Source: an uncultured Gammaproteobacteria bacterium
GTDB taxonomy: Bacteria; Patescibacteriota; Microgenomatia; CAZETR01
DNA: 57,994 nucleotides
Direction: 5' to 3'
NCBI GenBank assembly: GCA_964514545.1
Contig: CAZETR010000032.1
Coordinates: 1 to 57,994 of the forward strand
The position numbers were made by a program, and so were the translations under genes. The notes beneath the pieces are model-generated. The model was not told where the DNA came from. It did no database searches and was given only the letters and a program-made list of their open reading frames with translations. Of the stretch, positions 22,501 through 51,211 are shown in pieces (position 1 is the stretch's first letter; each line of letters opens with the position of its first letter).

Positions 22501-22884
22501 ATGAGGAAGCTAGTCCAGGCAGTGGTCGTGATTTTGTTCGTAGGCACGGTGATAAACTTTGTCAAGACGACTCGACGGCTGGCCGGGGTTTCGAGGGAAA
22601 TCCAGGCTCAGAGGGACAATCTGGTGAGGCTGGAGCGGGAACAGAAGGAGCTACTGGCAAAAAAGGCGGAGGTCGAGACTCCGGGGTTTGTAGAGAAGGA
22701 GGCCAGGGAGAAGCTGGGGATGGGAAGAGAAGGGGAGACCATTTTGGTCCTGCCGGACCAAAATGAAATTCCCAGACCTCCCTCCTTCGCTGAAGCTTCG
22801 GCGGGCAGGCAAATGACAAATCAAGTGTTGGAGAATTTAGAAAATTGGGAGAGGTGGGCGGTGGTGTTTGGGTTTAAGAAGTGA
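22501..22884 (+). CDS. Septum formation initiator (FtsB/DivIC-like)
   Basis: TM segment + coiled coil + VEKEAREKLGM.REGE motif. Confidence 0.75.
   Translation: MRKLVQAVVVILFVGTVINFVKTTRRLAGVSREIQAQRDNLVRLEREQKELLAKKAEVETPGFVEKEAREKLGMGREGETILVLPDQNEIPRPPSFAEASAGRQMTNQVLENLENWERWAVVFGFKK
22780..22809 (+). repeat. 30-bp palindromic element (family A), in frame in the FtsB-like gene
   Basis: ccctccttcgctgaagcttcggcgggcagg, encodes PSFAEASAGR. Confidence 0.85.
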
Positions 22885-22901
22885 AGAAGGAAGAGGGTTT
22901 G

Positions 22902-22973
22902 TGGCTGCGACAGGACTCGGACCTGTAACCATTGCCTTATGAAGACACCGCTCTACCATTGAGCTACGCAGCC
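22902..22973 (-). tRNA. tRNA with CAU anticodon, probably elongator Met
   Basis: ggctgcg/cgcagcc acceptor (G1:C72), loop ttcataa, T-loop tccgagt. Confidence 0.88.
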
Positions 22974-23062
22974 ATAACGTGACTGGCATATTTTAACGTA
23001 GATTGGGCGAGTTGTCATTCGGCTTTGAATCTGGTATAGTTTTGTGGCTGAAAAGCAAAACA

Positions 23063-23132
23063 CGCGGGGTAGTGTAAAGCCGCACGGAAGGCTCATAATC
23101 TTCCAGTCCTGGTGCGATTCCGGGCCCCGCAA
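23063..23132 (+). tRNA. Atypical initiator-type tRNA-Met(CAU)
   Basis: cgcgggg/ccccgca acceptor with C1xA72 mismatch, loop ctcataa; anticodon stem gaagg/tcttc; T-loop tgcgatt. Confidence 0.75.
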
Positions 23133-23142
23133 CACGTAAATA

Positions 23143-23170
23143 AAGAGGCTGTAACTAGCTTCTTTTTTGT
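23143..23170 (+). terminator. Probable intrinsic terminator after the tRNA
   Basis: aagaggct...agcttctt stem followed by a T-run. Confidence 0.55.
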
Positions 23171-23187
23171 TATTATATAATCGTGGT

Positions 23188-23631
23188 ATGGCTCTTCAAG
23201 ACGTTTGGTCACAACTAATCAGGTTTCCCAATGGTGAGGCCGTAGGAAAAAGAATGGCCTAGTTGTTAGAGCTGTCTTTGAGGCTAGGCAACGACGATCT
23301 CTACCCTTCAGTCCAGACAATTTGGCGAGCCATAGAAAGCCGGGAGGAGCAACTTTTGGGTAGAACTTTTGAGGATGTTCACAAAGGAGGCAGCGTCACT
23401 GTCAAGCTAGAAGATGCCATGAGAAAAGCCGGCGACGACGAGTGGGATGAGTTCAAAAGGATTATTAACTTGGAACCAATTAAAGACAAGGAAGCCGAGA
23501 GAATAATCGCCGACGGCAGCGGCCTGGTAAGGGGAACCGGTTTTGAGGACTGGGTATTGGGAAAAACCGAAAAACCCATCGACCCAGAAACAATAATAAG
23601 GAAGGTGAAAACTTTGGGGAAAGAAGCCTAG
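23188..23631 (+). pseudogene. Hypothetical gene interrupted by one in-frame TAG (23260-23262)
   Basis: ATG 23188 lies 6 nt after TATAAT and is in frame with ORF 23263-23631. Confidence 0.55.
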
Positions 23632-23652
23632 TTCAGGTATAATGCACAAATT

Positions 23653-23838
23653 ATGGCGAAGGAGGGGCGGGTAATATCAATTTATGTGTGTTCGAGCATG
23701 GGGGACACCATGCAGGAAGTGCCGACAGTTAAGGGCAAATTTCGCACGATTTATGTTAAAGCCAGCGCCGGCCGGGAGAGAAACCAGGATCTGATTTTAT
23801 GGAGTCCCCGCAACAAAGAACGACGATTCGTAGAGTAG
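23653..23838 (+). CDS. Short ORF, possibly a truncated MOSC-like N-terminus
   Basis: GRVISIYV...MQEV resembles MOSC N-termini; TATAAT at 23638-23643. Confidence 0.35.
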   Translation: MAKEGRVISIYVCSSMGDTMQEVPTVKGKFRTIYVKASAGRERNQDLILWSPRNKERRFVE

Positions 23839-23847
23839 AATTGGGGA

Positions 23848-24075
23848 ATGAAAATGACCCGCGAAGAGATACTGGCAAAGATTGAGGAATTAAAGAAGAA
23901 AAAGGCCGAGAAGGAGGCAAGGTATAAGCACAAGATGCGGTTTTACCGGGGGGTGATACACGAGAGCGCGGCGAGCGAGCTCAAACACCAAGAGGTGAAG
24001 GTGCTGGAGAGTTATCTGGATAGTATTGAGAAGGAAATTAAGGCGTGGGAGGAGAAGCTGGGAGGGGGTAGATAG
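23848..24075 (+). CDS. Small coiled-coil hypothetical protein
   Basis: 75-aa highly charged helical ORF with + strand codon style. Confidence 0.65.
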   Translation: MKMTREEILAKIEELKKKKAEKEARYKHKMRFYRGVIHESAASELKHQEVKVLESYLDSIEKEIKAWEEKLGGGR

Positions 24076-24081
24076 AGATTT

Positions 24082-24141
24082 GAGATAAGCAGAGCTTGTC
24101 TCTGCGAGATGGAGATAAGCAGAGCTTGTCTCTGCGAGATG
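24082..24141. repeat. Two tandem 30-bp family B hairpin repeats
   Basis: gagataagcagagcttgtctctgcgagatg x2, internal gcagag/ctctgc stem. Confidence 0.9.
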
Positions 24142-24256
24142 GAGATTTGAGATAGAGATAGAGTAATTGAGGAAAAGATTGGAGAGATTGAACAATTGGT
24201 TATCGGTTGTCATTGGTAGTCATTTGTGGTCATGGGTTGTGCGGTATAATTAAGCT

Positions 24257-25243
24257 ATGAATAGAATTGTGTTTTCGGGAATACAGCCCTCGGGCAATTT
24301 GCATATTGGCAACTACATTGGGGCGATGCGGCAGTGGGTGGCGGGGCAAACAATCGGGATGAATATTTTCTGCGTTGTAGATTTGCATGCGATTACGGTG
24401 CCACAGGATCCGGTGGTATTGCGGGAAAAAACGCTTGAGGTGGCCGGGCTAATTATTGCCTGCGGAATAGATCCGGAGAAATCAATTCTATTTGTGCAGT
24501 CGCACAATCCGGACCACGCTAATCTCGCGTGGATTTTAAATTGCAATTTATCTATGGGTCAGATGAGCCGAATGACGCAGTTTAAGGAAAAGTCGGAGGA
24601 GAAGGAGTTTGTGGGGGTGGGACTATTTGATTATCCGGCCCTGATGGCGGCTGACATTTTGCTTTATGACACGACCGAGGTGCCGGTGGGAGAGGACCAG
24701 AAACAGCACGTGGAACTGACGCGGGACGTGGCGGAGAGGTTTAATTCTAAGTACGGAGAGACGTTTGTTTTGCCAAAACCAGTCATCCCGCAATTGGGTG
24801 GGAGGGTGATGAGTTTATCTGACCCCTTGAAGAAAATGAGCAAAAGCGACGATGACGCGATGGGGGCAATTGGGTTGTTGGAAGGAAAAGACGCGATTGT
24901 AAAGAAAATAATGAGCGCCGTGACTGATAGCGGAGATGAAATAAAATATGATGAAGAGAAGCGACCGGGGATTTCTAATCTGATGGCGATTTATCGGTAT
25001 TCAACTGGAAAGAAAATCGAGCAGGTGGAGGAGGAGTTTGCGGGAAAAGGATATGGTGAGTTTAAAAAGAGAGTGGCGGAGGCAGTGGTTGCGCTTCTGG
25101 AGCCAATTCAGGCAAAGTATAAAGAATTGCGGGAGTCGGGGGAGCTGGTAAAGATACTGGCCGGAGGAGCTGCCAAAACCCGGGAGATTTCCGGAAAGAA
25201 ATTGGAGCAGGTGTATGAGAGGGTGGGGTTTGTAGTCGGATAG
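24257..25243 (+). CDS. trpS: Tryptophanyl-tRNA synthetase
   Basis: SGIQPSG, HIGN, YPALMAADIL, VPVGEDQKQH, KMSKS. Confidence 0.98.
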   Translation: MNRIVFSGIQPSGNLHIGNYIGAMRQWVAGQTIGMNIFCVVDLHAITVPQDPVVLREKTLEVAGLIIACGIDPEKSILFVQSHNPDHANLAWILNCNLSMGQMSRMTQFKEKSEEKEFVGVGLFDYPALMAADILLYDTTEVPVGEDQKQHVELTRDVAERFNSKYGETFVLPKPVIPQLGGRVMSLSDPLKKMSKSDDDAMGAIGLLEGKDAIVKKIMSAVTDSGDEIKYDEEKRPGISNLMAIYRYSTGKKIEQVEEEFAGKGYGEFKKRVAEAVVALLEPIQAKYKELRESGELVKILAGGAAKTREISGKKLEQVYERVGFVVG

Positions 25244-25296
25244 AGAAAGTAAAGATTAAATATCAAAAATCAAAAGTACACATTAAATATCAAAAA

Positions 25297-25626
25297 ATGA
25301 TTACGATTGACGAGTTTGAAAAGATTGAGATGAGAGTGGGGATGGTAACGGAGGCGAGCGAGGTGGAGGGGAGCGCGAAATTAATAAAACTAAAAGTAAG
25401 AGTAAGTGTAGGTGGGGACGAAATAACTGTATTTACGGGGGTTAAAAGATGGTATTCGGCGGAGTTTTTTACCGGGAAAAAATTTATATTTCTGGTGAAC
25501 CTGGAGTACAAGAAAATAATGGAGAGCGAGTCGCAGGGAATGATTTTGGCGGCGGAGCACGAAGACGGAAAGCCTATTTTTTTGGTCCCGGAGGGAGAGA
25601 TTAGGGTGGGAGCGAGGGTACGATAG
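25297..25626 (+). CDS. tRNA-binding OB-fold protein (MetG C-terminal/CsaA/Trbp111-like)
   Basis: DEFEKIEMRVG, VNLEYKKIMESESQGMIL. Confidence 0.85.
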   Translation: MITIDEFEKIEMRVGMVTEASEVEGSAKLIKLKVRVSVGGDEITVFTGVKRWYSAEFFTGKKFIFLVNLEYKKIMESESQGMILAAEHEDGKPIFLVPEGEIRVGARVR

Positions 25627-25732
25627 GATGGGGGACCAAGAAAATGAGTGTAAGTGGGTAGTCTAAGTCTAGTAAATCGGGGTTGGCCGTGGATAAAAAT
25701 GGGCTTGGGGAGTATGATATGGAAGCAAAAAT

Positions 25733-27701: not shown

Positions 27702-28745
27702 ATGAAAACATTGTTAGTAATCGATGGGAATGCGGTACTGCATCGGGCTTTTCATGCGATGCCGGAGTGGAGAAATAGAAGCGGGGAGGCAACTAGCGGA
27801 GTGTATGGGTTTTTTTCCATGCTTTTAAAGGCCAGAGAAGATTTGAATCCGGATTATTTAGTCGTGACATTTGATATGCCGGAGCCAAACTTTAGGCATG
27901 CGATGTATGTGGGTTATCAGTCCAATCGCGGGAGAGACGAGCAACTAGATCGGGATATTTGGGAACAGGTGGAGAAACTTAAAGTTGCTTTGGAGAAACT
28001 GGGAGTGCCTGTTTTTGCGGTAGCGGGATATGAGGCGGATGATGTAATAGGAACTGTTGCCCTGCAGGCAACTAGTTCCAAATCCCAAATCCCAAATCCC
28101 AAATCCCAAAAAGTTGATGAAGTAATAATTTTGACAGGGGATCGCGATTTGCTGCAATTGGTGGACGACCGAGTGAAAGTTTACATGCCAATTAAGGGCT
28201 TGTCGGAAACAGTATTACTGGATCGGGATGGAGTAAAGGCAAAAATGGGGGTATGGCCGGAGCAGATAGTTGACTACAAGGCATTGGTGGGTGATGGGAG
28301 TGACGGGTACCCGGGGGTGGCGGGAGTGGGACCTAAAGGAGCTTGCCAACTCATATCACAATTTGAAAACCTAGACAGATTATACGGGGAAATCACAAGC
28401 TCAAAACCACAAATCCCTGCTCGCAATGCTACGCATAGCGTTGCAGGCGGGCCAAATCCCAAATCCCAAATAAAGGACAATCTGAAGGCAAAACTTTTGG
28501 AGGGATATGAGATGGCGAGGATGAGCCAAAAATTGGCAACTATTATTTGTGATGTTCCCTTGACACTGGATTTAGGGAAAGCGGTAATGCCTAGCAAGGA
28601 GAAGTTTGCTCAGTTGTTTGAAGAGGTGAGACATCCGAGCTTAAAAGCGAGGGTGATGGGGGAAGAATTCAAAACTCAAAATTCAAAACTCAAAAGTGAA
28701 AGGCAAAATTCAAAAGTTAGCGAGAATCAGGAACTGTTGTTTTGA
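27702..28745 (+). CDS. Standalone 5'-3' exonuclease (Pol I N-terminal/flap endonuclease)
   Basis: IDGN, GYEADD, TGDRDLLQL, LVGDGSDGYPGVAGVGPK; no polymerase domain. Confidence 0.92.
   Translation: MKTLLVIDGNAVLHRAFHAMPEWRNRSGEATSGVYGFFSMLLKAREDLNPDYLVVTFDMPEPNFRHAMYVGYQSNRGRDEQLDRDIWEQVEKLKVALEKLGVPVFAVAGYEADDVIGTVALQATSSKSQIPNPKSQKVDEVIILTGDRDLLQLVDDRVKVYMPIKGLSETVLLDRDGVKAKMGVWPEQIVDYKALVGDGSDGYPGVAGVGPKGACQLISQFENLDRLYGEITSSKPQIPARNATHSVAGGPNPKSQIKDNLKAKLLEGYEMARMSQKLATIICDVPLTLDLGKAVMPSKEKFAQLFEEVRHPSLKARVMGEEFKTQNSKLKSERQNSKVSENQELLF
28416..28451 (-). repeat. 36-bp family A-related palindrome, in frame in the exonuclease
   Basis: cctgctcgcaatgctacgcatagcgttgcaggcggg; reverse complement runs cccgcc...gcagg; encodes PARNATHSVAGG. 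Confidence 0.75.
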
Positions 28746-28951: not shown

Positions 28952-28980
28952 ATAGTACATAAAATCTAAATATATGTCAA
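28952..28980 (-). promoter_or_regulatory. Sigma70 promoter TTGACA-17-TACTAT (TG-extended)
   Basis: -35 at 28980-28975, -10 at 28957-28952; predicted +1 about 28945. Confidence 0.8.
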
Positions 28981-30311
28981 GAGGGAAGTTTAATCAAGCC
29001 ACAAGCCACAAGCCACCCGCCTACGCTGAAGCTTCCACTTTCGCAGCTGCTTCGGCGGACAGGTCGGCGGGCAGGCAAATTCTAAGAACCATAAAGATAG
29101 CTATCGTTCATGACCCCGCACAAACCTCGTCGCTCCCGAGGTCTACGTCCTCGCGTCGCGATGTCGGTAATGCGGGGCAGGTTACTTTAAAGGTAGCACT
29201 AGTGCACGATTATTTAAAGGAGGTGGGGGGGGCGGAGAGGGTACTGATGGTACTAAAGGAAATGTTTCCGAATGCCACGGTTTATACAGCTTATAAATTT
29301 CCTCCCTATTGGGGACAGTTCCGGGACGAACTTCTAAAATGGGATATTCGGGAAAGTTGGGGACGGTGGTTGCCTTTTCTACCTAAATTTATTAGCTATT
29401 ACACGATATTGTCCCCGCTTTTTTTCTCTAGAATGGATCTATCAGAATATGATCTGGTGATTGTTTCGGCGACGGGGGGGTACTTTCCAAACGGGGTAAA
29501 AATCGGGGAGAAAACAGGACTACTGACTTATTGCCATACTCCTCCACGGTTTTTGTACGGCTATCCGACGGCAACAGTCGAACGGAATAAATGGTATTGG
29601 AAGCCGATATCGGCTGTGGCAAATTTGATTTTGAGACAGGTTGATTTTCGATTTGCGCAAAGGCCACATTTGTTTATTGCCAATTCAAAAAATGTGGCAA
29701 GGAGGATTTGGAAGTTTTATAGAAGAGAATCAGTGGTGGTATATCCACCAATACAAATCCCAAATCAACTAATAAAAAAGAATCCTAAACTGGATTACTA
29801 TTTAATGGTTTCTAGGATTGTGGGGGGGAAGAATATCGAGATGGTGGCAGAGGCGGCGGAAAAAGGCGGATTTAAATTGATGATTGCCGGAAGACCAATT
29901 GGCCGAAGCGGGCGGGAGATTTTAAACAAGATCAGTAACAGTAAAAGCAAGATGGTCAAGTATTTGGGAGAGGTGAGTGATGAGGAAAGAGGTAGGCTAT
30001 TTGCTGGAGCCAGGGCCTTTTTGGCGATGGAGAGTGACGCGGATTTTGGAATTACGGCAGTTGAACCGCAAATATATGGAACACCGGTAATTGCATACCG
30101 GGGAGGGGGATATTTGGAGACAGTGGTCGAAGGAAAGACGGGAATTTTTGTTGATAGGTTGGATGTTGACGGGGTTATAGAGGCTGTCGAGAAATTTGAA
30201 AAAACAGAATTTAACAGCATGGTTATCAGGAATAATGCTGAGAAGTTTTCTAAAGAGACTTTTAAGGAGCAGATGATAGAATTGATAGCGAAGTATGCCG
30301 GAATTACCTGA
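28974..30311 (+). CDS. GT4-family glycosyltransferase with repeat-derived N-terminal extension
   Basis: KVALVHDYL...GGAERV, YCHTPPRFL, DFGITAVE; TAAAAT at 28960-28965 supports this start. Confidence 0.9.
   Translation: MSRGKFNQATSHKPPAYAEASTFAAASADRSAGRQILRTIKIAIVHDPAQTSSLPRSTSSRRDVGNAGQVTLKVALVHDYLKEVGGAERVLMVLKEMFPNATVYTAYKFPPYWGQFRDELLKWDIRESWGRWLPFLPKFISYYTILSPLFFSRMDLSEYDLVIVSATGGYFPNGVKIGEKTGLLTYCHTPPRFLYGYPTATVERNKWYWKPISAVANLILRQVDFRFAQRPHLFIANSKNVARRIWKFYRRESVVVYPPIQIPNQLIKKNPKLDYYLMVSRIVGGKNIEMVAEAAEKGGFKLMIAGRPIGRSGREILNKISNSKSKMVKYLGEVSDEERGRLFAGARAFLAMESDADFGITAVEPQIYGTPVIAYRGGGYLETVVEGKTGIFVDRLDVDGVIEAVEKFEKTEFNSMVIRNNAEKFSKETFKEQMIELIAKYAGIT
29016..29075 (+). repeat. Nested family A elements (a 30-bp unit inside a 30-bp unit)
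   Basis: Outer 29016-29033 + 29064-29075 = cccgcctacgctgaagcttcggcgggcagg; inner 29034-29063 = tccactttcgcagctgcttcggcggacagg. Confidence 0.8.
29114..29181 (+). repeat. 68-bp hairpin element with family A-like ends
   Basis: ccccgca...tgcgggg followed by cagg. Confidence 0.6.
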
Positions 30312-31182
30312 GATTGAAACCGTCCGGTTGCAACTCGCGAAAGTGTTGCCGGGTTTGGAGGTCGAGGGGCTTGACGTGTTGAAGGAAAAGAGTGTGCAGG
30401 GAGATTGGAGCTTGGCGAAAGGAAAGAAGGTCGAGGAGGTATTGAGAAAGGGGAAAATGTTACAGATAAATTTGTCTGGGGAAATTTCAGTGGCGATTCA
30501 TTTTAAGATGACCGGTCAATTGGTGTTCGAACCAATTGGCAAGCCACAAATCCCAAGCCACAAATCCCAAATTGGCCGGATTGTAGGTGGGCATCCGACG
30601 GAGGATTTCTTCGGGCCCTTGCCGAGCAAACACACGCGGGCGGTTTTTAACTTTACCGGTGGATCAAAAATGTATTTTAACGATCAGCGGATGTTTGGGT
30701 GGATAAAAATAGGAATGAGATTGGAGATTGCGAAAATGAAGTTCTTGCAGGAGCTGGGGCCGGAGCCATTCGAGTTGACGAGTGAGGAGTTTATAAAGCT
30801 AATAGAGCGATCAAAAAGGCCAATTAAATTGGTGCTGATGGACCAGACGATAATTTCTGGAGTGGGAAATATTTATGCTAACGACGCTTTGTGGGAGGCA
30901 AGAGTCGACCCAAGGCGAGGGGCAAATACGCTCACGGAAAAACAATATAAAGATTTATACAAGGGCGTGATAGATGTGCTACGGGAAGGAATTAAGTATG
31001 GGGGAGCGACAGCGGCGGATGCTAAATATATAGATCTTCACGGCATGGGTGGGCATTATCAAGATCATTTTCGGGTTTATGACAGAGAGGGACAACCCTG
31101 CTTGCGAGAGGATCGAGGAATTGTTCACAAGTTTGTCCTAGGAGGGAGAGGAACGTATTTTTGCCCGGAGTGCCAGAGATAA
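30295..31182 (+). CDS. mutM: Formamidopyrimidine-DNA glycosylase
   Basis: MPELPEIE, HFKMTG, DQRMFG, GVGNIYANDAL, C-terminal finger FCPECQ. Confidence 0.95.
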   Translation: MPELPEIETVRLQLAKVLPGLEVEGLDVLKEKSVQGDWSLAKGKKVEEVLRKGKMLQINLSGEISVAIHFKMTGQLVFEPIGKPQIPSHKSQIGRIVGGHPTEDFFGPLPSKHTRAVFNFTGGSKMYFNDQRMFGWIKIGMRLEIAKMKFLQELGPEPFELTSEEFIKLIERSKRPIKLVLMDQTIISGVGNIYANDALWEARVDPRRGANTLTEKQYKDLYKGVIDVLREGIKYGGATAADAKYIDLHGMGGHYQDHFRVYDREGQPCLREDRGIVHKFVLGGRGTYFCPECQR

Positions 31183-33283: not shown

Positions 33284-34360
33284 ATGGTAATTAAGGCTGT
33301 TAATCTACACAACTTTAGAAGTTATAACAGGGTGGAATTTGAATTTGACCCGGAGACGACTGTCGTAATCGGACCGAATGGAAGCGGGAAGACAAACATG
33401 CTTGAGGCGATCTATATGATAGCGACGGGAAAGAGCTTTCGGGCGGAGATGGAGGCGGAAGTAATTCGATATGGGGAGGGATTTGGGAGAATAGAGGCGG
33501 AAATCCGAATCAAGCCTCAAATCACAAGCCCCAAGTCACAAATTAAACGACTGGAAATTCTGGTGAGCGACGGTAGTCAGGAATTTCCCAGGAAGAGGTT
33601 TTTAGTTAACGGTGTTTCCAGGAGAATGATTGACTTTGTGGGAAATTTAAGAGCTGTATTGTTTGGGCCGTGGGATATGGAACTACTGGACGGGAGTCCC
33701 GGGAAAAGAAGGAGGTATCTGGATATGGTTTTGTCGCAGGTGGACCGAGAGTACGGGAGGTCGCTAATTTCCTATGAAAAAGGAATCAGACAGAGAAATA
33801 AGTTGCTGGAAAGTATTCGAGAAGGGTTTGCCAGTCGAACACAGCTTTCGTTTTGGGATAAGCTGGTAATCCGCAACGGAAATTATATTACAGACAAGAG
33901 GGCGGAGTTTATTGATTTTCTTGTTAACCGAGTTGGTCAGCCAATTGAACTGGGAATGGAATATGATAAAAGTGAGATTTCGGAGGCGAGATTGGCCCAG
34001 TACGAAAATGAAGAAGTAGCGGCCGCGGTGACACTAGTGGGACCGCACCGTGACGACTTCGTCGTCGCGCAAGCCACAAATCTCAAATCTCAAGCCACAA
34101 AAGACGTGGCGAAATTTGGATCTAGGGGGGAACAGAGAATGGCGGTGTTGTGGTTAAAGATGGGGGAGCTGGACTTTATAGAGAGCAAGACCGGAGAAAG
34201 ACCGCTGTTGCTGTTGGATGATATTTTTTCTGAGCTAGATCAAAAACACAGGATGGTCGTTTGTGGGATGGTGGGGAGCCAGCAGACGATAATCACCGCA
34301 GCGGATGAACACCTGGTTTTAGGGGTGGGGGGGAAAGTTTTGCGGTTGGGCGTAGAGTGA
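33284..34360 (+). CDS. recF: DNA replication and repair protein RecF
   Basis: NFRSY, GPNGSGKTN, GPHRDD, SRGEQR, LLLDDIFSELD. Confidence 0.95.
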   Translation: MVIKAVNLHNFRSYNRVEFEFDPETTVVIGPNGSGKTNMLEAIYMIATGKSFRAEMEAEVIRYGEGFGRIEAEIRIKPQITSPKSQIKRLEILVSDGSQEFPRKRFLVNGVSRRMIDFVGNLRAVLFGPWDMELLDGSPGKRRRYLDMVLSQVDREYGRSLISYEKGIRQRNKLLESIREGFASRTQLSFWDKLVIRNGNYITDKRAEFIDFLVNRVGQPIELGMEYDKSEISEARLAQYENEEVAAAVTLVGPHRDDFVVAQATNLKSQATKDVAKFGSRGEQRMAVLWLKMGELDFIESKTGERPLLLLDDIFSELDQKHRMVVCGMVGSQQTIITAADEHLVLGVGGKVLRLGVE

Positions 34361-35150: not shown

Positions 35151-35207
35151 CCCTGCGCCGGAGGCTTCCAGCCTCGCGCTCGCGAGGGGCGACGGTGCGG
35201 GACAAGG
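35151..35207 (+). repeat. Intergenic hairpin element with family A-like ends
   Basis: cctgcgccg...cggtgcggg + acaagg; inner gaggct/agcctc. Confidence 0.6.
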
Positions 35208-36362: not shown

Positions 36363-38114
36363 ATGCTTTTTAGGAGGTTTGCAGAATTTCTGGAAAAATT
36401 GGAGGGGATGAGTTCGAGGAATGAGATGACTGTGGTGTTGGCAGAATTATTAAAGGAATTGAGTGCAGAGGAAGCTGACAAAGCGGTCTATCTGGCATTG
36501 GGATATTTGGCACCGCCGTATGCGGGACTCGAGATTGGGCTGGCCGAGAAGATGATGGCAAGGGTTGTGGCGCGTGCATTCGGGGTTACGGAGATAGAAG
36601 CATGGAGGGAATATAAGAAGGCCGGAGATTGGGGAAGTGCTACGCTTCAAATCCCAAATCCCAAATCCCAAATCCCAAAGAAACTGACGATAGGCGATGT
36701 CTATGAGGAGTTGGTGCGGATTGCGAAGGAGGGTGGTGAGGGGAGCCAGGAGAGAAAGGTAGAGATGCTGGCGAACTTGCTAAAGGAGGTGGGGGACGGG
36801 AGAAGTGCTAAGTACTTGGCCAGGATACCGATTGGAAGGCTAAGATTGGGGTTTTCGGACGTGACAATTCTCGACGCATTGTCGGTCATGAAGTCGGGTG
36901 ATAAATCACTTCGGAAGGAGATAGAGAGGGCATTTAACGTGATGGTTGACATCGGAAGGATTGCAAAAGTATTTAAAAAGGATCCAAGAGAGATCGCGAA
37001 AATACAATCAGAGCCCGGGATACCTATACGTCCTGCCTTGGCGGAAAGAATTCCGACGGCCGAGAAAATTATTGAAAAACTGGGTGAATGTGTGGTTGAG
37101 CCAAAATACGACGGAGTTCGTGTGCAGGTGCATATTACCACCCAAGGAGAAGTATCAATTTTTAGCAGAAACTTGGAAAGTACGACCGCAATGTTTCCGG
37201 ATTTGGTGTTAGCCGCCAAGAAAGAGCTTCCGAGAGGAGTAGTTTTTGACGGGGAGGCAATTGCGTACGATCCAAAAACAAACAAATTTTTGCCTTTTCA
37301 GGAGACGTCGCAGAGAAAAAGAAAACACGATATTGAGGAGAAGGCTCGCGAGTTGCCTTTGCGGGTATTTTTGTTTGACGTACTCTACGCAAACGGCCAT
37401 AGCCATCTGAATTCTTCGTATCGGGAGCGAAGGGAGGTTTTGGAAAGGATGGTAAAAGATAAAGGAACTTTTATCAAGGCGAAGTATCTGGCTGTGAAAA
37501 ATGCCCAGGAGATAAGGGCCGAATTTAGGGAATCAATAAAAGCAGGTTTGGAGGGGTTGATGGTGAAAAAGCCGGACTCGGTATATCAGGCGGGGGGAAG
37601 AAACTTTAATTGGGTGAAGTTTAAAAAAAATACTGAGACAGAAAGCGGAAAATCCAGGCTAATTGATACCTTGGATTGTGTGGTGATGGGAATATATCGA
37701 GGACGGGGAAAGAGAGTAGGGTTTGGGGTGGGAGCTTTCCTGGTCGGAGTGCTAGGCGCAAATAAAAAATTAAATATCAAAGACCAAAAATCTACCAGAA
37801 TTTTTACTATTGCGAAGATTGGAACCGGGCTGACCGATGATAAATGGCGGGAAATGGAAAGGAGGGGCCGAGAGCTGTTGGTACAAGAGAAACCTCCAGA
37901 GTACGACGTCGACAAAAATTTAAGCCCCGATGTATGGATGAGGCCTAAACTAGTGGTTGAAATATTGGCGGATGAGATAACTCGAAGCCCGATTCATTCG
38001 GCCGGATTGGCCTTACGATTTCCCAGACTTATCAGATTTCGAGACGATAAAAATTATCTGGATGCGACGACGCTTACAGAAGTTGAGAAACTATTTAAAT
38101 TGCAGGGCAGGTAA
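36363..38114 (+). CDS. ATP-dependent DNA ligase (DBD + adenylation + OB)
   Basis: EPKYDGVRVQVH, FDGE, FDVLY, EGLMVK, WVKFK, LRFPR. Confidence 0.95.
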   Translation: MLFRRFAEFLEKLEGMSSRNEMTVVLAELLKELSAEEADKAVYLALGYLAPPYAGLEIGLAEKMMARVVARAFGVTEIEAWREYKKAGDWGSATLQIPNPKSQIPKKLTIGDVYEELVRIAKEGGEGSQERKVEMLANLLKEVGDGRSAKYLARIPIGRLRLGFSDVTILDALSVMKSGDKSLRKEIERAFNVMVDIGRIAKVFKKDPREIAKIQSEPGIPIRPALAERIPTAEKIIEKLGECVVEPKYDGVRVQVHITTQGEVSIFSRNLESTTAMFPDLVLAAKKELPRGVVFDGEAIAYDPKTNKFLPFQETSQRKRKHDIEEKARELPLRVFLFDVLYANGHSHLNSSYRERREVLERMVKDKGTFIKAKYLAVKNAQEIRAEFRESIKAGLEGLMVKKPDSVYQAGGRNFNWVKFKKNTETESGKSRLIDTLDCVVMGIYRGRGKRVGFGVGAFLVGVLGANKKLNIKDQKSTRIFTIAKIGTGLTDDKWREMERRGRELLVQEKPPEYDVDKNLSPDVWMRPKLVVEILADEITRSPIHSAGLALRFPRLIRFRDDKNYLDATTLTEVEKLFKLQGR

Positions 38115-41184: not shown

Positions 41185-41433
41185 GTATTCTTAAAGATAC
41201 TTGGCAGGCTCTGGGGTTAAAGAATGCCAGAGAGCGACTGGTTGGTCAAGGGGCAAATGGTTACATAAGCGAAGAGATGAATAGCCAATAGACAAGTAGA
41301 TCAGTAGCAAAGTTCAAAGCCCAAATGATAAATGTCAAATCAAACCTAATACGAAGGTTGATTTAGGTGTAGGAGTTATGAACAGTAGGCTAGAATCTAA
41401 AGTTTAAGTGAGAGCAGGTTGATAGCTGGTATC

Positions 41434-41459
41434 ACTTTAATGATTTAAATCATTAAAGT
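41434..41459. repeat. Perfect 26-bp AT-rich palindrome
   Basis: actttaatgatttaaatcattaaagt equals its reverse complement. Confidence 0.95.
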
Positions 41460-41478
41460 ATTTAGAAGCTGGAGAGCT

Positions 41479-42160
41479 GGGACGGTGTATGGGTTTGGGG
41501 CGGGTGGGTTGAAATCTGAAGATTGGTGATTGGAAGATGGGGTTGAAGGCCGGGTTTGTAAAGATATAGAAAATGCGGATACCGTCCCGCGGGTTTCCAG
41601 AGAGCGTCTTGAGTTTCGCGAAATGTGCGAAGCGACGCTATCTGTTCTCCCGCGGGACGGGGATCCAACCGCGTCAAACGCGGTGGGATTTTTATTTGCC
41701 GACCTGTTACCAGGCCGGCGACAACCCCGGGAGGAGGACGGGGCTGAAAATAACAGGAGCGAGCCGACGGCAGCTCGCCCACGGAGTCCCACCAGGAGAA
41801 AAGGTTATTGAATTAGCCTGGCCGCGTCCGGATGGAGCCGGAGGCGGCCGTTCTCCCATTCGGCTAGCATGTGTGTTAGGAGTGCCGAGCTATCGGCCTG
41901 ACGCTCGGCTTGATCCTTCTCCATCTTGAACCCCTTTGGCTTCCGCGCCAGTGCGCGGAATAGAGTTTTCGCGGCTGGTGGGGCGGCAGCCGCGTCCAGC
42001 TTTTTGTCGATCGCACGAAAATTGAGCTGGGGCATTTTAACTCCGGGTGGGTATGTCTCCGGTGGGACTGGGTAGGGAATCAGATTCCGTGAATGCGTAG
42101 AATGCGTAGAGTGCCTAGTTGCGCTAGATGTATACGTGACTGCCTAGCCGATCCCACCGG
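41479..42160 (-). ncRNA. Large, densely hairpinned locus of unknown class (strand tentative)
   Basis: Ten stems of 6-12 bp in ~580 nt; no match by eye to tmRNA, RNase P, group I/II intron or hammerhead cores. Confidence 0.5.
41805..42035 (-). CDS. 76-aa hypothetical protein inside the structured locus
   Basis: SD ggag 5 nt before ATG; amphipathic helical sequence. Confidence 0.5.
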   Translation of the reverse strand: MPQLNFRAIDKKLDAAAAPPAAKTLFRALARKPKGFKMEKDQAERQADSSALLTHMLAEWENGRLRLHPDAARLIQ

Positions 42161-42284
42161 ATTTGAAATCAATTTATAAAGAGCTAAGAGAAACAAAATA
42201 CCGGCGTGCCGGTACGATATCCTATAACACGTCTACAGGAAGAGTGTCAAGGGGAATTTGAAACTTGCGATGTACAATGGGATT

Positions 42285-44288: not shown

Positions 44289-44346
44289 GCGAAGCGAGAA
44301 GCTTTTATGTGGAAATTGAATCAGCTGAGGAAATCAAATATTAAAG

Positions 44347-44733
44347 ATGAAAAATCAAAAATACAGATCAAAAATTAAAAACAACATTGGTTTGAGGTTC
44401 TTTGATAGTGTTTATCAAATTGTGAAGAGGATTCCGGCGGGAAACGTAGCGACATATGGGCAGATAGCGAAGGCGATTGGAACAAGGGATGCCAGGATAG
44501 TTGGGTTTGCGTTGCATGCCAATAGAGATTCTGATGTGCCGTGTCACCGGGTGGTGAACAAGGAGGGGGGGCTAGCGGAGAACTTTGGCGGCCCGTTCGA
44601 CCCTACTTCGCAAATGCTTCGCAGGACAAGTGGGTGGAGAGAACAGAGGAGGAGGCTGTTGGCGGAGGGGGTGCCGTTTAAAAACGAAAAGATCGTGGAT
44701 ACAGAAAAGTGTAATTTCGATGTCAAAGTTTGA
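44347..44733 (+). CDS. MGMT-family O6-alkylguanine alkyltransferase (single domain)
   Basis: VATYGQIA, ARIVG, PCHRVV. Confidence 0.9.
   Translation: MKNQKYRSKIKNNIGLRFFDSVYQIVKRIPAGNVATYGQIAKAIGTRDARIVGFALHANRDSDVPCHRVVNKEGGLAENFGGPFDPTSQMLRRTSGWREQRRRLLAEGVPFKNEKIVDTEKCNFDVKV
44601..44630 (+). repeat. 30-bp family A element, in frame in the MGMT gene
   Basis: ccctacttcgcaaatgcttcgcaggacaag aligns ungapped with the 22780 copy. Confidence 0.7.
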
Positions 44734-46166: not shown

Positions 46167-46172
46167 ACTTTT

Positions 46173-46189: not shown

Positions 46190-46241
46190 TGACATGATTT
46201 AAGCACTTGATTATGATGTCTGTCAAGGGAAGATTTAAGAT

Positions 46242-46664
46242 ATGCAAACTGATAAAATTTTCGTTTTGTTGATTGGAGTCGGCGCCATGGGATTTACGTA
46301 TATATGGTTTATGACGGGGTGGGGGAAGAAGGATGTGAGACTGAAACTGCTAAAAGAAGAGGGAAAAAAGAAGCTCGAAAGGCAGACCATAGAAATTGTT
46401 GTTGATGGGGGCTATCGACCTGAAACTGTTGCTGTCGACAAGGGAGCCAGGACGACGATTAGCTTTCTAAGGAAGGATCCAAGTTCGTGTTTGGAAGAGG
46501 TAGTCTTGCCGGAATTTGGGATCAAGAAGTTTTTACCGCTGGGAAAGAAAGTGGAGGTAAGTTTTGTGCCTGACAAAGCCGGAACGTTTAATTTCTCGTG
46601 CGGGATGCGAATGTTTCATGGGAAGATTGTTGTGACTGACCAACCTCCTCGACTACATTTATGA
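46242..46664 (+). CDS. Cupredoxin-domain protein
   Basis: [19 protein letters not shown]. Confidence 0.88.
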
Positions 46665-48967
46665 ATAGCGTAAAGAAACAGTTTCCAATTGTAGGAATGC
46701 ACTGTGCGGCCTGCGCGATAAACATTCAAAGAACGCTTCGAAAGACTGTCGGGGTGGTGGTGGCTGATGTGAATTACGCCAGCGGAAGTGCTAGCGTGGA
46801 ATATGATCCCAGCGAGTGTAATGAGAAGAATCTGGAAGTGGCGGTTGCCAGCGTAGGTTCAGAGTATAAAGCTGTTCTGGGCGATGAAGGGGGCGGTGGA
46901 GCGAGTCCTTCGGGTTTAAGTGAAAGCGATCAAGTAGAAGAGCTGAAAAGAAAAGAACTCGACGATCTGCGGAAAAAGGTTGTTGTAAGTTGCGTGTTTT
47001 CGGTACTAATATTCATGGGGTCGATCCGAGACTTTGTTGCTTTTGTCCCATCCTTTTTGGCTTCCGGCCGGGTGCAGTTTTGGCTGTCTCTGCCGGTACA
47101 ATTTTGGGCCGGTGGAGTGTTTTTGAGAGCCTTGGTAAATAGTTTCAAAAACAGAATGGCCGGGATGGATACGCTAATTGGCTTGGGAACGATAGCGGCG
47201 TTTATTTTTTCTACGATCCAGGTTTTTGCTCCGGCGATGTTTGGGGGAGAGGGAATTTATTACGACACTGCGGCGGTAATTATTACCTTGATTTTACTGG
47301 GGAGGTTTCTGGAGATGAGGGCGAAGTCAAGAACGGGAGAGGCGATAAAGAAGTTATTGGGGCTTTCGGCTAGGACAGCGAGAGTGATACGGGGCAAAGA
47401 TGAGATAGAGATAGAAATTGAGAAGGTGATGGCGGGAGACTTGATTCGAGTGAGGCCGGGTGAGAAAGTGCCGGTTGACGGGAAGGTAATTGAGGGAGAA
47501 TCGGCTGTCGATGAAGCGATGATTTCCGGGGAGTCGATACCGGTTGAAAAAGGAGAAGGGGACATGGTCATCGGGGCGACGATTAATAAAAGCGGAAGCT
47601 TTGTTATGCAGGCGACCAAGGTAGGAAAAGATACGGTTTTGTCACAGATAGTAAAAATGGTCGAGCAGGCGCAGAATAGCCGGGCTCCGATTGCGCGGTT
47701 GGCGGACGAGATATCCGGATATTTTGTCCCGGTGGTAATGATGGCGGCGATTGGCACTTTTGTCGCCTGGTATTTGGCAGGGGCTGGGATTTCGTTTTCT
47801 TTACTTACAATGGTTGCGGTTTTGATTATTGCTTGTCCGTGCGCACTGGGACTCGCAACTCCGACCGCGATTATGGTGGGAGTGGGCAAAGGGGCTCAAA
47901 AAGGAATTTTGATAAAAGACGCGCAGGCCCTGGAGATTGCGCATAAGACAAGAACAGTAGTCTTTGACAAGACGGGGACACTGACCCGCGGTGAGCCAAA
48001 AGTAACTGACTTTGCGCTGATGCAGGCTCTGGAAAAGGTGGGGTTAAGTGTGAAGTGGCCTGTGGGCAGGATAGGGTCGATTGAGGGGTTTGTAAAACAG
48101 GCGGTCGCAAACCTGGAGAAAGGGTCGGAGCACCCTTTGTCTCGGGCGATAGTGGAGTTTTGTAGTAGTGACAGTAAGAGTAAGAGGGGTGAATTTCCGG
48201 TTAAAGAGTTTGTGGCGATTGAAGGATTTGGGGTTAGAGGAAGGGTGGGGGGGCTGAAAGTTGTAGTAGGGAACAGGAGGCTAATGGAGAGGGAGAAAGT
48301 GATGCGGTGTGCGGAGTTGGACAAAAAGGCTGACGCATGGTCGGGCGAGGGAAAGACATTGGCGTACGTGGGGATTGACGGAAAGAATGTGGCCTTGTTT
48401 GCCATTGCCGATACTCTAAAAGAAGAGGCTGGCGAGACTGTTGCAACACTAAAGAGGATGGGAGTTGATGTGTGGATGATTACCGGAGATAATACGCCCA
48501 CGGCCCAGGCGATTGGGCGAATGGCGGGGATCGATATGGTGATGGCGCAAGTGCTGCCGGAAGACAAGGTGAATAAGGTAAAGGAGCTGAAAGAGAAGTC
48601 AGGCGGGGTGGTGATGTTTGTCGGTGACGGGGTAAACGACGCTCCGGCGCTGGCGGCAGCTGATGTGGGGGTGGCCATGGGGAGCGGCACGGATGTGGCA
48701 ATTGAGTCGGCGGGGGTGACGCTACTCAGCCGTGACCTGCGGTCGGTTGTGTCGGCTCTCAAGTTATCGCGGGCGACGATGGGGGTGATAAAACAAAATT
48801 TGTTTTGGGCGTTTGCCTATAACGTGATTTTGATTCCGGTTGCAGCGGGAGCGCTCTTTCCTTTCTTTAGAGTTTTATTAAATCCAATACTGGCAAGTCT
48901 GGCGATGGCGGCAAGCTCGATTAGCGTGGTCGGGAACTCCCTGCGATTAAGGGAAGGCAAAATTTAA
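46661..48967 (+). CDS. copA: Cu(I)-translocating P1B-type ATPase
   Basis: [41 protein letters not shown]. Confidence 0.96.
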
Positions 48968-49105
48968 AATTCAAAGGGCCAAATTACAATTCAAAATTCA
49001 AAAATTATCGCCATTTGCCACCAATTTAAACCCCATATGGTGACAAGTGTCGTAAGGCGACTTGTAGTTGCTAAATGGAATGCTTTTGGTATAACCTGGG
49101 TTACA

Positions 49106-49426
49106 ATGTCGATAAAAATTACAGACCAAAATTTTGACACGGAGGTTATAAAGGAGACCTTACCGGTAATGGTTGATTTCTGGGCCGAGTGGTGCGGGCC
49201 GTGCAAAATGGCCGAGCCCGTGATTGAGGAACTGGCAAGTACGTACGTCGATAAGGTCAAAGTGGGGAAACTGAACGTGGACGAGAATACAGCTGTTGCG
49301 GCAAAGTATGGGGTGATGAGTATCCCGACGGTGATACTGTTTAAAGATGGTGCCGAGGTGGCCCGACAGGTGGGGTATGCGGGTAAGGCAGGGTACGAGC
49401 AATTGGTTGCGAAGGCGAGCGTGTAA
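49106..49426 (+). CDS. trxA: Thioredoxin
   Basis: DFWAEWCGPCK, MSIPT. Confidence 0.96.
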   Translation: MSIKITDQNFDTEVIKETLPVMVDFWAEWCGPCKMAEPVIEELASTYVDKVKVGKLNVDENTAVAAKYGVMSIPTVILFKDGAEVARQVGYAGKAGYEQLVAKASV

Positions 49427-49431
49427 TTAGC

Positions 49432-50015
49432 CTATCGCTTGAAGAGCCTCTTCTTTTTAAGATCTACCACGTTGGAGCAGAGGTCGGTTATAACAAGCTG
49501 GTTGCCAATCGGTTTGACGTTCCAGGCAATCATGTTTATGCCTACAGTTCGAAGCCGATTGTTGAAGTTTTCCGAGGCAAATTCTAATATTCTCAAAATT
49601 TCTGAGTTGATACTGCGTTCGAGGCTTCACCAACTTGAAAAATATCTGCTAAAGTTTTGCCGGGGATAAGTTTCGATATTGTGAACGGCACGATTGCACT
49701 TCGGATATATGGGTCTTGACACCTACCGATTCCAAGAATTGGATTGACTGACCAGGCGAAATTGCACTCTTTGTGTAAGGGAAAACCGGCAACTTTGATT
49801 GATCGAAATTTCCGGGCTGCATCATTTGTTACCTTTGTATAATATGAGACTGTTTCGTAATTTACACTATCGTGCTTTGTGGGATTGCGCAGCCAGTAGA
49901 TTTTTACAGCGATTGCTTCTCCGGTTTTCGGATCTACTCCTCTAAGAACTAAAGACTCGTTGTGTCCGATTGATTCTTTTTCTAATGTGTATGCGGATAG
50001 GCTAACCTCTTTCAT
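49432..50015 (-). pseudogene. Frameshifted kinase-like/hypothetical gene
   Basis: ORF 49593-50015 (IG...AIAVKIY) continues in a shifted frame to WNVKPIGNQLVITDL, stop at 49432-49434. Confidence 0.4.
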
Positions 50016-50107
50016 AATTATGTGGTGTATTGTCTATTAGGTGCTATGTTTTTGCAAGTCGGGGTCGCGGGTTGTGGGTATGACTGGCGGCATGGTATGG
50101 TAGGTGG

Positions 50108-51211
50108 ATGGAGGGCGATATTTACGATGTGATGATAATTGGTTCGGGGCCGGCGGGGCTGACGGCGGGGATATATTGCGGTCGGGCAAATCTCAAGACG
50201 GTGGTGGTCGGTGGATCAATCTGGGGCGGACAGCTGATGCTGACGACGGATGTGGAGAATTTTCCGGGATTTCCCAAGGGAATACTCGGACCGCAACTGA
50301 TGGGGAATATGCGGGCACAAAGTGAGAAGTTCGGCGGAAGGGTTGTTGAAGAAGACGCAACCGGGGTTGACTTTTCCAAGCGGCCGTTTGAAGTAAGTGC
50401 GGGGGAAAAGAAGTACTTGGGCAAAGCTGTAATTGTGGCGACGGGCGCGGCTGCGAAATGGTTGGAGCTGCCCAATGAGCAAAAGTTAATCGGCAGAGGG
50501 GTCTCGAGTTGCGCCCCGTGCGACGCGCCGTTCTTTAGGGAAAAAGATGTGATTGTGGTGGGTGGAGGAGACGCGGCGATGGAAGAGGCGCTGACACTCG
50601 CGAGGTTTGCTAAAACCGTGACGATAGTCCACCGGAAAAGCGAGTTTAAGGCAAGCAAGATAATGCAGGAGAGGGTGATGGGGGAGCCAAAGATAAAGAT
50701 AATTTGGAATACGGAGGTAGCGGATATATTGGGGGAGAGCAAGGTGGGGGGAGTAACATTCAAATCCCAAACCCCCCGCCTTCGCCAGGGCTATGGCGGG
50801 CAGGCAAATTTGAAGTTCCAAATAAACCAAAATTTTCAAAATTCAAAAGTTGTTTCGCAAAACGAAAAAGAGATTATTTGGGAGATGGCGATAGACGGGG
50901 TGTTTGTGGCGATAGGGCACGTGCCGGCGACGGGTATTTTTAACGGGAAGATTGAGCTGGACGAGAAAGGGTATGTGGCGAAAGCCACAAATTCCTCATG
51001 GAAAGGTTCTGGCGAATTTTCCAGGGCAAGCAAATTCCAAACCTCAAAAAGGTACTCATCAATGAGTAGTGTTGAGGGGGTATTTGTGAGCGGGGACGTG
51101 CATGATTATTACTATCGGCAGGCAATAACGGCGGCGGGTTTCGGGTGTATGGCGGCGATGGACGCGGAGAGATGGCTGGCGGAGCAGGAGATATCTGAGG
51201 GCACAGTCTAA
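50108..51211 (+). CDS. trxB: Thioredoxin reductase
   Basis: IGSGPAG, CAPCD, GGGDAAMEEA, VFVAIGH, RQAITAAG. Confidence 0.96.
   Translation: MEGDIYDVMIIGSGPAGLTAGIYCGRANLKTVVVGGSIWGGQLMLTTDVENFPGFPKGILGPQLMGNMRAQSEKFGGRVVEEDATGVDFSKRPFEVSAGEKKYLGKAVIVATGAAAKWLELPNEQKLIGRGVSSCAPCDAPFFREKDVIVVGGGDAAMEEALTLARFAKTVTIVHRKSEFKASKIMQERVMGEPKIKIIWNTEVADILGESKVGGVTFKSQTPRLRQGYGGQANLKFQINQNFQNSKVVSQNEKEIIWEMAIDGVFVAIGHVPATGIFNGKIELDEKGYVAKATNSSWKGSGEFSRASKFQTSKRYSSMSSVEGVFVSGDVHDYYYRQAITAAGFGCMAAMDAERWLAEQEISEGTV
50775..50804 (+). repeat. 30-bp family A element, in frame in trxB
   Basis: cccgccttcgccagggctatggcgggcagg within a heptamer tract; read as PRLRQGYGGQ. Confidence 0.85.

Follow-up and report, generated by a model that had tools for sequence, protein, structure and literature searches.

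E30, a 30-nucleotide hairpin repeat in conserved genes of a Microgenomates-group contig and in many bacterial phyla: a probable family of miniature mobile elements

E30 is a family of short hairpin repeats with a unit of 30 nucleotides (nt). We describe it here starting from a contig of an uncultured bacterium that, judged by its closest homologues, belongs to the Microgenomates group of the Candidate Phyla Radiation, CPR (contig CAZETR010000032.1, positions 1 to 57,994, forward strand; the whole stretch of 57,994 nt is called the window). A first-pass annotation, made from the letters of the window alone, had proposed a small mobile family of palindromic repeats of about 30 bp, inserted in frame into conserved genes of CPR bacteria. 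We confirmed that the family is real and found that it is spread over many bacterial phyla. Alignments with orthologues show insertions in the window genes. In our opinion E30 is probably a new non-autonomous family of miniature hairpins copied in trans, similar to the repetitive extragenic palindromic (REP) sequences or to the small dispersed repeats (SDRs) of cyanobacteria.

All sequences reported in the first-pass annotation were recovered at their positions and with the same translations. Repeat-finding placed the segments starting at 22778, 29014, 29032, 44599 and 50773 together as a single family, whose members are 66-100% identical over 32 nt. A search by nhmmer with a profile built solely from copies of other organisms detected the copies at 22780 (E 1e-8), 50775 (E 0.023), 29035 (E 0.037) and 44601 (E 0.22). 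Four matches of at least 11.8 bits were found in the real window versus 0.01 per shuffled window (100 dinucleotide-preserving shuffles), which confirms the presence of the family. A covariance model applied to the window with filters off gave 49.1 bits for the copy at 22780 and 44.6 bits for that at 50775 (both were part of the training alignment of the model), 28.1 bits for 29034-29064 (E 7e-4) and 24.5 bits for 44601 (E 0.004); everything else was noise. The tally for the 58 kb is five E30 copies and three relatives. All five copies lie within long open reading frames (ORFs).

We scanned one genome per species with the pattern TTCGCNNNNGCTTCGGCGGGCAGG, which has 20 specified bases and is expected to give about one chance match. 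The scan yielded at least 119 stretches with 121 pattern matches. Those listed belong to CPR, Verrucomicrobiota, Kiritimatiellia, Planctomycetota, Acidobacteriota, Bacteroidota, Proteobacteria, Myxococcota, Geobacterales, Chloroflexota and Armatimonadota. Near-identical interiors are present in at least nine phyla, in host genomes with a GC content from 32% to 70%. Metagenome-assembled genomes (MAGs) account for 117 of the 119 listed genome matches and isolates for two, long-read complete chromosomes being included. Complete carrier genomes include the Saprospiraceae chromosome OZ245751.1 and OY969699.1. Nine of the 121 listed pattern matches are chance ones and come from GC-rich genomes. The initial framing of the repeat as specific to CPR was not borne out, since the same 30-mer is found in many phyla: E30 is a pan-bacterial element, not a CPR feature. 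The search of 72,556 plasmids and 50,697 phages from cultured sources gave no credible E30 match (all E >=0.05), and there were 11 pattern matches in IMG/VR.

The unit has sharp borders and the layout CCCGCC-TTCGCYRARGCTTC-GGCGGG-CAGG, or, in full, CCCGCC-TTCGC-YRAR-GCTTC-GGCGGG-CAGG, and is usually followed by C. The conserved 14-nt interior TTCGCYRARGCTTC contains a 2-bp GC clamp and a tetraloop, whose variants among the matches listed are CAAG (40), CGAG (18), TAAA (15) and TGAA (12). CAGG is a conserved unpaired 3' tag; on the opposite strand a 5' CCTG tag is followed by the hairpin. Information content is zero directly outside the 31-nt block, and the flanks are otherwise unrelated. The left six bases are absent from the search pattern and are nevertheless CCCGCC or some one-base variant of it in 100 of the 121 listed pattern matches.

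The stem is conserved as a structure. In an additional scan of metagenome contigs we fixed the 14-nt interior and CAGG and left both stem arms free. Covariation was assessed on 87 distinct copies among the matches listed, in an ungapped alignment that was not fitted to any structure. Double (compensatory) changes were found at all six stem pairs, e.g., TCCGCC/GGCGGA, TCCTCC/GGAGGA, TCCACC/GGTGGA, CCAGCT/AGCTGG and CCATAC/GTATGG. Stem cells are paired in 85% of cases versus 64% in shuffles (none of 500 reached 85%) and at most 46% if the partners are slid. These data show that the 6-bp stem is kept by compensatory changes, with the interior and the tag constant. The word "palindromic", used in the first-pass annotation, is thus justified for the family by covariation across other genomes, but single window copies fold as DNA no better than shuffles (z about 0). 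Good DNA folds in the window were obtained for three longer segments, 29006-29080, 28406-28460 and 29105-29185 (z from -2.3 to -2.8).

Stem mismatches are asymmetric, with 33 A.C against 12 G.T. This suggests that the strand with CCTG first is the folding one, although mutation bias could contribute. The consensus RNA folds have energies of -14.2 kcal/mol for one strand and -17.6 kcal/mol for the other. A 12-bp fold of the CCTG-first strand, shifted by four bases, was considered and ruled out, because the invariant CAGG cannot track a variable stem and covariation backs the 6-bp register. The ends of the unit are asymmetric as well. Base 31 tends to equal base 1, and in about 10% of copies the start of the element is repeated by 4-5 nt of the 3' flank, compared with 3.6% in controls; there is no comparable repeat of element sequence at the 5' junction. 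We considered a possible resemblance of the core to the anticodon arm of tRNA-Gly(GCC) but attribute it to coincidence between palindromes, because copies linked to tRNAs, described below, carry the TAAA loop.

The most canonical copy in the window, 22780..22809 (+ strand, CCCTCCTTCGCTGAAGCTTCGGCGGGCAGG), makes up codons 107-116 (PSFAEASAGR) of a DivIC/FtsB-family gene (22462-22884). It represents the TGAA/CCCTCC variant, which is also found in other phyla. The DivIC Pfam domain ends at residue 99, and the decapeptide falls into the variable linker before the conserved tail NWxRWxxVFGF; homologues have about 10 residues fewer in that linker. A decayed copy at 44601..44630 (+, CCCTACTTCGCAAATGCTTCGCAGGACAAG) lies in an MGMT-family gene (44347-44733) and encodes PTSQMLRRTS. 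It is 69% identical to the reference copy, and its CCCTAC stem subtype recurs among metagenome copies. All 14 homologues (55-68% identical) have NFAFDGWRE where the window protein has NFGGPFDPTSQMLRRTSGWRE. Excision of exactly 44601-44630 (ga|C…G|t ggg tgg) gives GAT GGG TGG and restores F-D-G-W-R-E as in the 14 homologues. A PDB alignment had placed this segment on the C-terminal helix of Ada, as if it were ancestral; the orthologue alignment ruled this out.

The copy at 50775..50804 (+, CCCGCCTTCGCCAGGGCTATGGCGGGCAGG) is embedded in a degenerate array of CCAAATC type within trxB (50108-51211) and encodes PRLRQGYGGQ at about residues 223-232. The closest TrxB homologues (58-64% identical) have the neighbouring low-complexity insert and lack PRLRQGYGGQ, while minimal TrxBs lack both inserts and pass from VKFKDG directly to EMxIDG. 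Forty residues of the query (220-259) stand opposite nine residues of a solved TrxR. In the AlphaFold (AF2) model of TrxB, with a mean confidence score (pLDDT) of 81.5, residues 226-229 score below 50 and lie between strands 215-221 and 246-251.

The remaining two copies form a composite at 29016..29075 (+). The inner copy (29034-29063, TCC…GGA subtype) sits between positions 18 and 19 of the outer one (29016-29033 and 29064-29075), whose rejoined halves make a perfect 30-mer, CCCGCCTACGCTGAAGCTTCGGCGGGCAGG. The composite folds with -17.2 kcal/mol (z -2.3). It is located just after a (CAAGCCA)3 array in the 5' region, or N-terminal extension, of a GT4 gene (28974-30311). The GT4 Pfam domain starts at residue 84, downstream of these elements, and their translation is therefore uncertain.

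The 36-bp reverse-oriented relative reported at 28416 proved to belong to a sister family with E30 ends. It occupies 28416..28451 in a 5'-3' exonuclease gene (27702-28745), reads CCCGCCTGCAACGCTATGCGTAGCATTGCGAGCAGG on the minus strand and encodes PARNATHSVAGG. It has the CCCGCC start and the CAGG end of E30 with a different interior, is flanked by CCAAATC heptamers, and folds with -11.4 kcal/mol (z -2.7). A copy with 92% identity is present in an unrelated metagenome contig (locus L182); there, between CTGACTC heptamers, an inverted copy holds another copy in its loop. In the window, the element abuts the array (CCAAATC)2.9 at 28452..28471 (+, found by Tandem Repeats Finder). About 17 residues are missing from the closest homologues of the exonuclease, which lack the 36-nt element with its heptamers and, at another site, a CCAAATC array. 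Exonucleases of other lineages have unrelated inserts at the same two loops.

Orthologue alignments of TrxB, the exonuclease (at two sites), the MGMT-family protein and DivIC support the view, taken from the start, that these segments are insertions rather than ancestral sequence. The TrxB, DivIC and exonuclease proteins each have 10-17 extra residues in variable loops. The proposed creation of new peptide loops is consistent with these alignments and with the low confidence of the insert in the TrxB model. The placement in conserved genes holds for the copies at 22780, 44601 and 50775, but not for the GT4 copies, which lie upstream of the Pfam domain, nor for a longer relative at 35151, which is intergenic. 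Window copies are read in three different frames, as "several frames" had implied. Several orientations were also claimed; the four bona fide window copies share a single one and only the 36-nt sister is reversed, although E30 copies of other genomes occur in both. Another suggestion was that the trxB copy has CAG in place of a TGA stop of the consensus. This is correct against the local TGAA-type copy, but the commonest forms elsewhere (CAAG, CGAG) contain no stop codon in this frame, which makes it unnecessary to assume that TGA was replaced.

In low-GC loci of other genomes, 27 of 55 copies lie deep in long ORFs; all frames and the two orientations are represented. Within ORFs, E30 is antisense (the CCTG-first strand in mRNA) in 40 cases versus 25 sense ones. 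The orientation relative to GC skew (108 vs 95) is not significantly biased. The neighbourhoods of the anchor copies contain about 20 more copies per 710 kb; consequently, the anchors are not single relics. Directly tandem 30-nt copies without spacers were found in locus L068, a contig of an 'Akkermansia' MAG, where six model matches, three of them directly tandem, occupy about 1 kb of apparently non-coding DNA (5616-6631). They adjoin a gene that by eye resembles a putative GIY-YIG-type restriction endonuclease.

A small part of the copies (5-8%) is placed exactly in phase in tandem arrays with a 7-8-nt period, ten times more often than control positions, while over 90% have no adjoining array. 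The in-phase placement matches that in the window, where elements abut CCAAATC or CAAGCCA units. We found no target-site duplication in general: flanking 7-mer direct repeats accompany 5 of the 121 listed matches and are restricted to the array subset.

In five CPR loci, the leader of a tRNA-Gly or tRNA-Pro gene contains E30 with the TAAA loop, oriented in the tRNA sense (L007:6383-6413, L041:7923-7953, L077:1912-1942, L016:843-873, and L107, where it adjoins tRNA-Gly 7252-7323). Such an E30 covers 4-5 nt at the start of the tRNA and is itself followed by a partial repeat of the element's own start (CCCGCT). In one more locus (L118, 3630-3740), a 21-nt copy of the 5' end of tRNA-Met is split by E30, 28 nt upstream of the intact tRNA. 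In Rfam searches of the window and four loci, tRNAs alone passed the gathering threshold, and the region 22740-22850 gave noise at E <=10.

The nesting of copies, their sharp borders and unrelated flanks, and the precision of the indels suggest that E30 is mobile. E30 inserts as a whole, which gives codon-exact 30-nt indels relative to orthologues and copies within copies, and it leaves no target-site duplication. By analogy with REP-associated tyrosine transposases (RAYTs) and the Y1 transposases of IS200/IS605, an enzyme acting in trans probably recognizes the folded single strand by its loop, tag and stem shape. The gene for it would lie in another part of the genome, or a host function of wide distribution would play this role. 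E30 is ten codons in length, GC-rich and mostly stop-free, so its insertion need not break a gene. Insertions into surface loops or linkers would leave the gene intact and persist as extra peptide loops, thanks to the ten-codon length, and other insertions would be purged. The 36-nt sister family, of 12 codons, may behave alike. Freedom from stops in all six frames is no sign of adaptation: 48% of composition-matched shuffles are also stop-free, and the absence of stops follows from the GC-richness of E30.

Several observations weigh against this reading. Nesting, sharp borders and precise indels agree with the small mobile family of the first-pass annotation, but no filled/empty polymorphism was seen between close relatives; the nearest relatives of the proteins of this genome are 64-70% identical. 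No mobilizing enzyme was found. In agreement with the first-pass annotation, there is no HUH (Y1_Tnp) or other transposase among the window genes, which are housekeeping ones apart from a XerC/D-like tyrosine recombinase gene (21543-22565, minus strand) that overlaps the start of the DivIC-family gene with the best E30 copy. A search within 2.5 kb of about 250 copies revealed no recurrent gene family, and clustering of the ORFs around them returned generic families alone (kinases, ABC ATPases, sigma factors). If E30 resembled REP/RAYT systems, some of these copies should flank a RAYT gene, and none does. The tag of E30 is neither GTAG nor CGTC. The mostly vertical inheritance described for REPIN/RAYT systems does not fit near-identical interiors across phyla. 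Transposition of single strands dependent on the replication fork would predict an orientation bias relative to GC skew, which is absent. Finally, the six-frame stop-freedom is not special for a sequence of this base composition.

Among the described kinds of repeats, REPs are the closest. They are imperfect hairpins of 20-40 bp with a 4-nt unpaired tag, fall into the GTAG and CGTC superfamilies, form subfamilies by complementary stem changes, and occur as singletons and in tandem or nested groups (Di Nocera et al. 2013, PMC3733652). Intragenic REPs are a minority, add 10-30 residues and are often located in replication or repair genes (PMC3733652). E30 resembles them in its 30-31 nt length, covarying 6-bp stem, 4-nt tag at one end, stem subfamilies and nesting. 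The window hosts also include a 5'-3' exonuclease and an MGMT-family protein, comparable to the repair genes that often host REPs. E30 differs from REPs in four respects: its tag is CAGG/CCTG; about half of its copies are intragenic, whereas REPs are predominantly extragenic, located downstream of ORFs, with a small minority in ORFs; neither RAYT nor any other linked gene was found around about 250 copies; and its sequence is absent from the text and supplements of PMC3733652. A further difference is the near-identity of the E30 interior in at least nine phyla. For these reasons E30 is not a member of the REPs.

REPIN/RAYT systems (REPINs are inverted REP doublets) share with E30 a short hairpin, presumably mobilized in trans by one enzyme, present in a single copy, that recognizes folded single-stranded DNA. 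However, E30 copies are mostly singlets. A RAYT gene is flanked by its own REPs, and no such gene is present beside the approximately 250 E30 copies or in the window. REPIN/RAYT systems are described as mostly inherited vertically within lineages (bioRxiv 10.1101/2022.05.22.493013).

The first-pass annotation likened the repeats to Rickettsia palindromic elements (RPEs) and SDRs, and the analogy holds as to a similar effect only. RPEs are palindromic repeats that sit in frame in unrelated housekeeping genes and add surface peptide segments (PMC10969869). E30 also gives in-frame palindromic inserts in unrelated housekeeping genes. RPEs, however, are about 100-150 bp long, encode a conserved peptide in one frame and occur in Rickettsia and relatives. 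E30 has 30 nt (RPEs are five times longer), uses several frames and inhabits many phyla, the window host being a CPR bacterium; hence E30 is not an RPE by size, frames or host range. SDRs are reported only from Nostocaceae (PMC5861425).

E30 copies do not resemble CRISPR repeats, being solitary, directly tandem or nested and having no spacer architecture. Miniature inverted-repeat transposable elements have terminal inverted repeats and target-site duplications and usually exceed 50 bp, unlike the 30-nt E30 with no duplication. The cyanobacterial SDR4-6, which belong to the families SDR1-8 that Elhai and co-authors reportedly defined by consensus sequences in 2008, are said to be 21-27 nt long, highly conserved, prone to form hairpins and involved in nested insertions. 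We know of no enzyme that mobilizes cyanobacterial SDRs. By description alone, E30 is like SDRs in being very small, conserved, hairpin-forming, nested and devoid of a known mobilizing enzyme, and differs from them in its length of 30 nt against 21-27 nt and in its pan-bacterial rather than Nostocaceae range. GC clusters and 'byp' mini-insertions of yeast mitochondria are short GC-rich palindromic mobile inserts in protein-coding genes of AT-richer genomes. They belong to organelles of eukaryotes, and ribosomes bypass some of them, whereas E30 inserts keep the frame and are presumably translated. Intervening sequences of 23S rRNA and cassettes with PF05635 genes are, like E30, sporadic insertions bounded by sequences able to pair; in contrast, E30 has no ORF and usually no arrays, and no rRNA is involved in the window. 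In the literature searched we found no paper with the 13-15-mers or peptides of E30 and none linking REPs to CPR. We therefore regard E30 as a new family within the small hairpin repeats, REP-like or SDR-like, with the SDR likeness judged by description.

The PF05635 cassettes offer a different explanation, which we consider unlikely: E30 and the short-period arrays could be parts or leftovers of a larger, mobile system of cassettes centred on PF05635 genes, with the hairpins as its minimal non-autonomous derivatives or preferred landing sites. We take PF05635, the '23S rRNA intervening sequence protein', to be a four-helix bundle related to Avd of diversity-generating retroelements, and we know of no catalytic activity of these proteins, which speaks against such a role. 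The 1.66 Mb of E30-anchored loci contain five PF05635 genes, and four of them lie within 450 nt of an E30, with about 11% expected for each. PF05635 genes were annotated at L099:1449-1796, L104:7288-7656, L149:237-863, L248:686-1093, L182:6465-6923 and L253-L257:1501-1851, and arrays bracketing the gene were seen at all but L182. In L099, L104, L149, L248, L253 and L255-L257, viral contigs included, the arrays are inverted and have a 7-8-nt period. The L104 gene lies between TTGTTGA arrays; a hairpin element of roughly 30 nt breaks each of them, and one of these elements is E30. The L253 cassette seems to break up a larger ORF. The tenfold excess of E30 in phase with such arrays also favours a connection. 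On the other hand, the window lacks PF05635 genes, the five PF05635 genes from viral contigs have no E30 nearby, the great majority of E30 copies are array-free, and with a sample of five genes the co-localization may just reflect a shared preference for permissive DNA.

Equally improbable, in our estimation, is that the hairpin is a functional nucleic-acid motif selected in place, e.g., a protein-bound RNA or DNA hairpin, a site of mRNA stabilization or processing, or a tRNA-leader element, which spread by its function and not by selfish copying. A covarying stem with a conserved loop and tag is what protein-bound hairpins look like; the mismatch asymmetry suggests a single folding strand, the tRNA leaders of five CPR loci contain E30 in the sense orientation, and the antisense placement in ORFs is slightly commoner. 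Still, a motif selected for function is hard to reconcile with copies in both orientations and all frames of unrelated ORFs and in intergenic DNA, with nested copies and tandem ones without spacers, with orthologues of the same gene that have no copy, and with the lack of an Rfam family match. Chance similarity, low complexity, ancestral protein sequence or an assembly or sequencing artefact could be suspected from the poor folding of single window copies, the divergence and initial Ada alignment of the 44601 copy, the prevalence of MAGs and the few chance matches, but this explanation is refuted by the excess over shuffled windows, by orthologues without the segments and codon-exact excision, by matches in the output of different assemblers, in complete long-read chromosomes and in two isolate genomes, and by diverged copies with compensatory stem changes, which cannot be artefacts.

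If E30 is indeed copied as a non-autonomous hairpin, it is a mobile unit just ten codons long with a near-invariant 14-nt core in at least nine phyla. Preservation of the core across so many phyla and genomes of such different GC content would imply either a mobilizing activity with a very broad host range or frequent seeding by horizontal transfer; to date, neither has been described. It would provide a concrete, datable origin for extra surface loops and linkers in TrxB, MGMT, DivIC and Pol I-type exonuclease and would explain recurrent 'junk' peptides (…FAKASAGR…, …RLRQGFGGQA…) in the predicted proteomes of uncultured bacteria. Such inserts can be recognized and masked with one small covariance model in annotation and structure prediction. 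Covariation of the stem and the one-sided terminal redundancy would serve as handles toward the enzyme. A more far-reaching proposal, which we put forward tentatively and with more doubt than confidence, is that E30 and its 36-nt sister are an undescribed and possibly the smallest and most widespread bacterial mobile DNA, neutral to codon phase and defined by loop and tag, which colonizes coding sequence across most phyla. It might be moved by a widely shared activity, perhaps tied to the PF05635 and heptamer-array cassettes and not of the RAYT type, and might be a general source of new protein loops and linkers.

Two longer hairpins of the window had been listed as relatives of E30. They have E30-like termini, CCCNGC...GCNGGG-CA(A)GG, and nothing else in common with it. 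The first is a 68-nt hairpin at 29114..29181 (+, CCCCGCAC...GCGGGGCAGG) in the 5' region of the GT4 gene, with a fold of -18.5 kcal/mol (z -2.8). It lies between diverged duplicates of the first codons of the gene (29087-29113 and 29182-29208; IKIAIVHD and LKVALVHD), and 16 of 22 nt of these flanks are identical (shuffle p about 0.01). The second is a GC-rich hairpin of 57 nt at 35151..35207 (+, CCCTGCGCCGG...GGTGCGGGACAAGG; fold z -1.5), intergenic between a minus-strand gene and a divergent Fic gene. The Fic domain starts at residue 177 of a long ORF, and the plausible start of the gene is the ATG at about 35216. Neither hairpin has a match in the 1.66 Mb of E30-anchored loci. Another palindromic unit of 30 nt, GAGATAAGCAGAGCTTGTCTCTGCGAGATG, occurs at 24082-24146 and 1853-1898, in intergenic DNA flanked by GAGATA hexamers. 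It is represented by 2.2 perfect tandem copies and one 89% copy (fold z -2.6), and the palindrome at 24082 likewise has no match in the E30-anchored loci.

About 18 short-period tandem arrays (7 or 14 nt), A/C-rich on the sense strand, are scattered over the window. Besides the array abutting the 36-nt element, they include 736-765, 2949-2980, 6139-6191, 10662-10705, 16008-16042, 17258-17287, 17460-17512, 28078-28110, 28666-28715, 30540-30570, 33511-33541, 34077-34093, 36648-36679, 44331-44381 and 48958-49003. Many are in frame in genes (PfkB, ribonucleotide reductase, the exonuclease, Fpg, RecF, an ATP-dependent DNA ligase and genes resembling those of penicillin-binding proteins) and encode segments of the KSQIPNPKSQ type.

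The ORF-poor region 41200-42250 contains long hairpins at 41582-41660 (27-nt arms) and 42058-42161 (25-nt arms); it has no Rfam match at E <=1 and may be an unannotated structured RNA. GC skew is from +0.16 to +0.43 in every 2-kb bin of 1-57994 regardless of gene strand, which is unusually high for a segment of a bacterial chromosome. Two paralogous genes on the minus strand (5615-8119 and 9965-12403, about 800 aa) have blocks in common, with 71-82% nucleotide identity and always 4542 nt apart; this pair looks like a local gene duplication.

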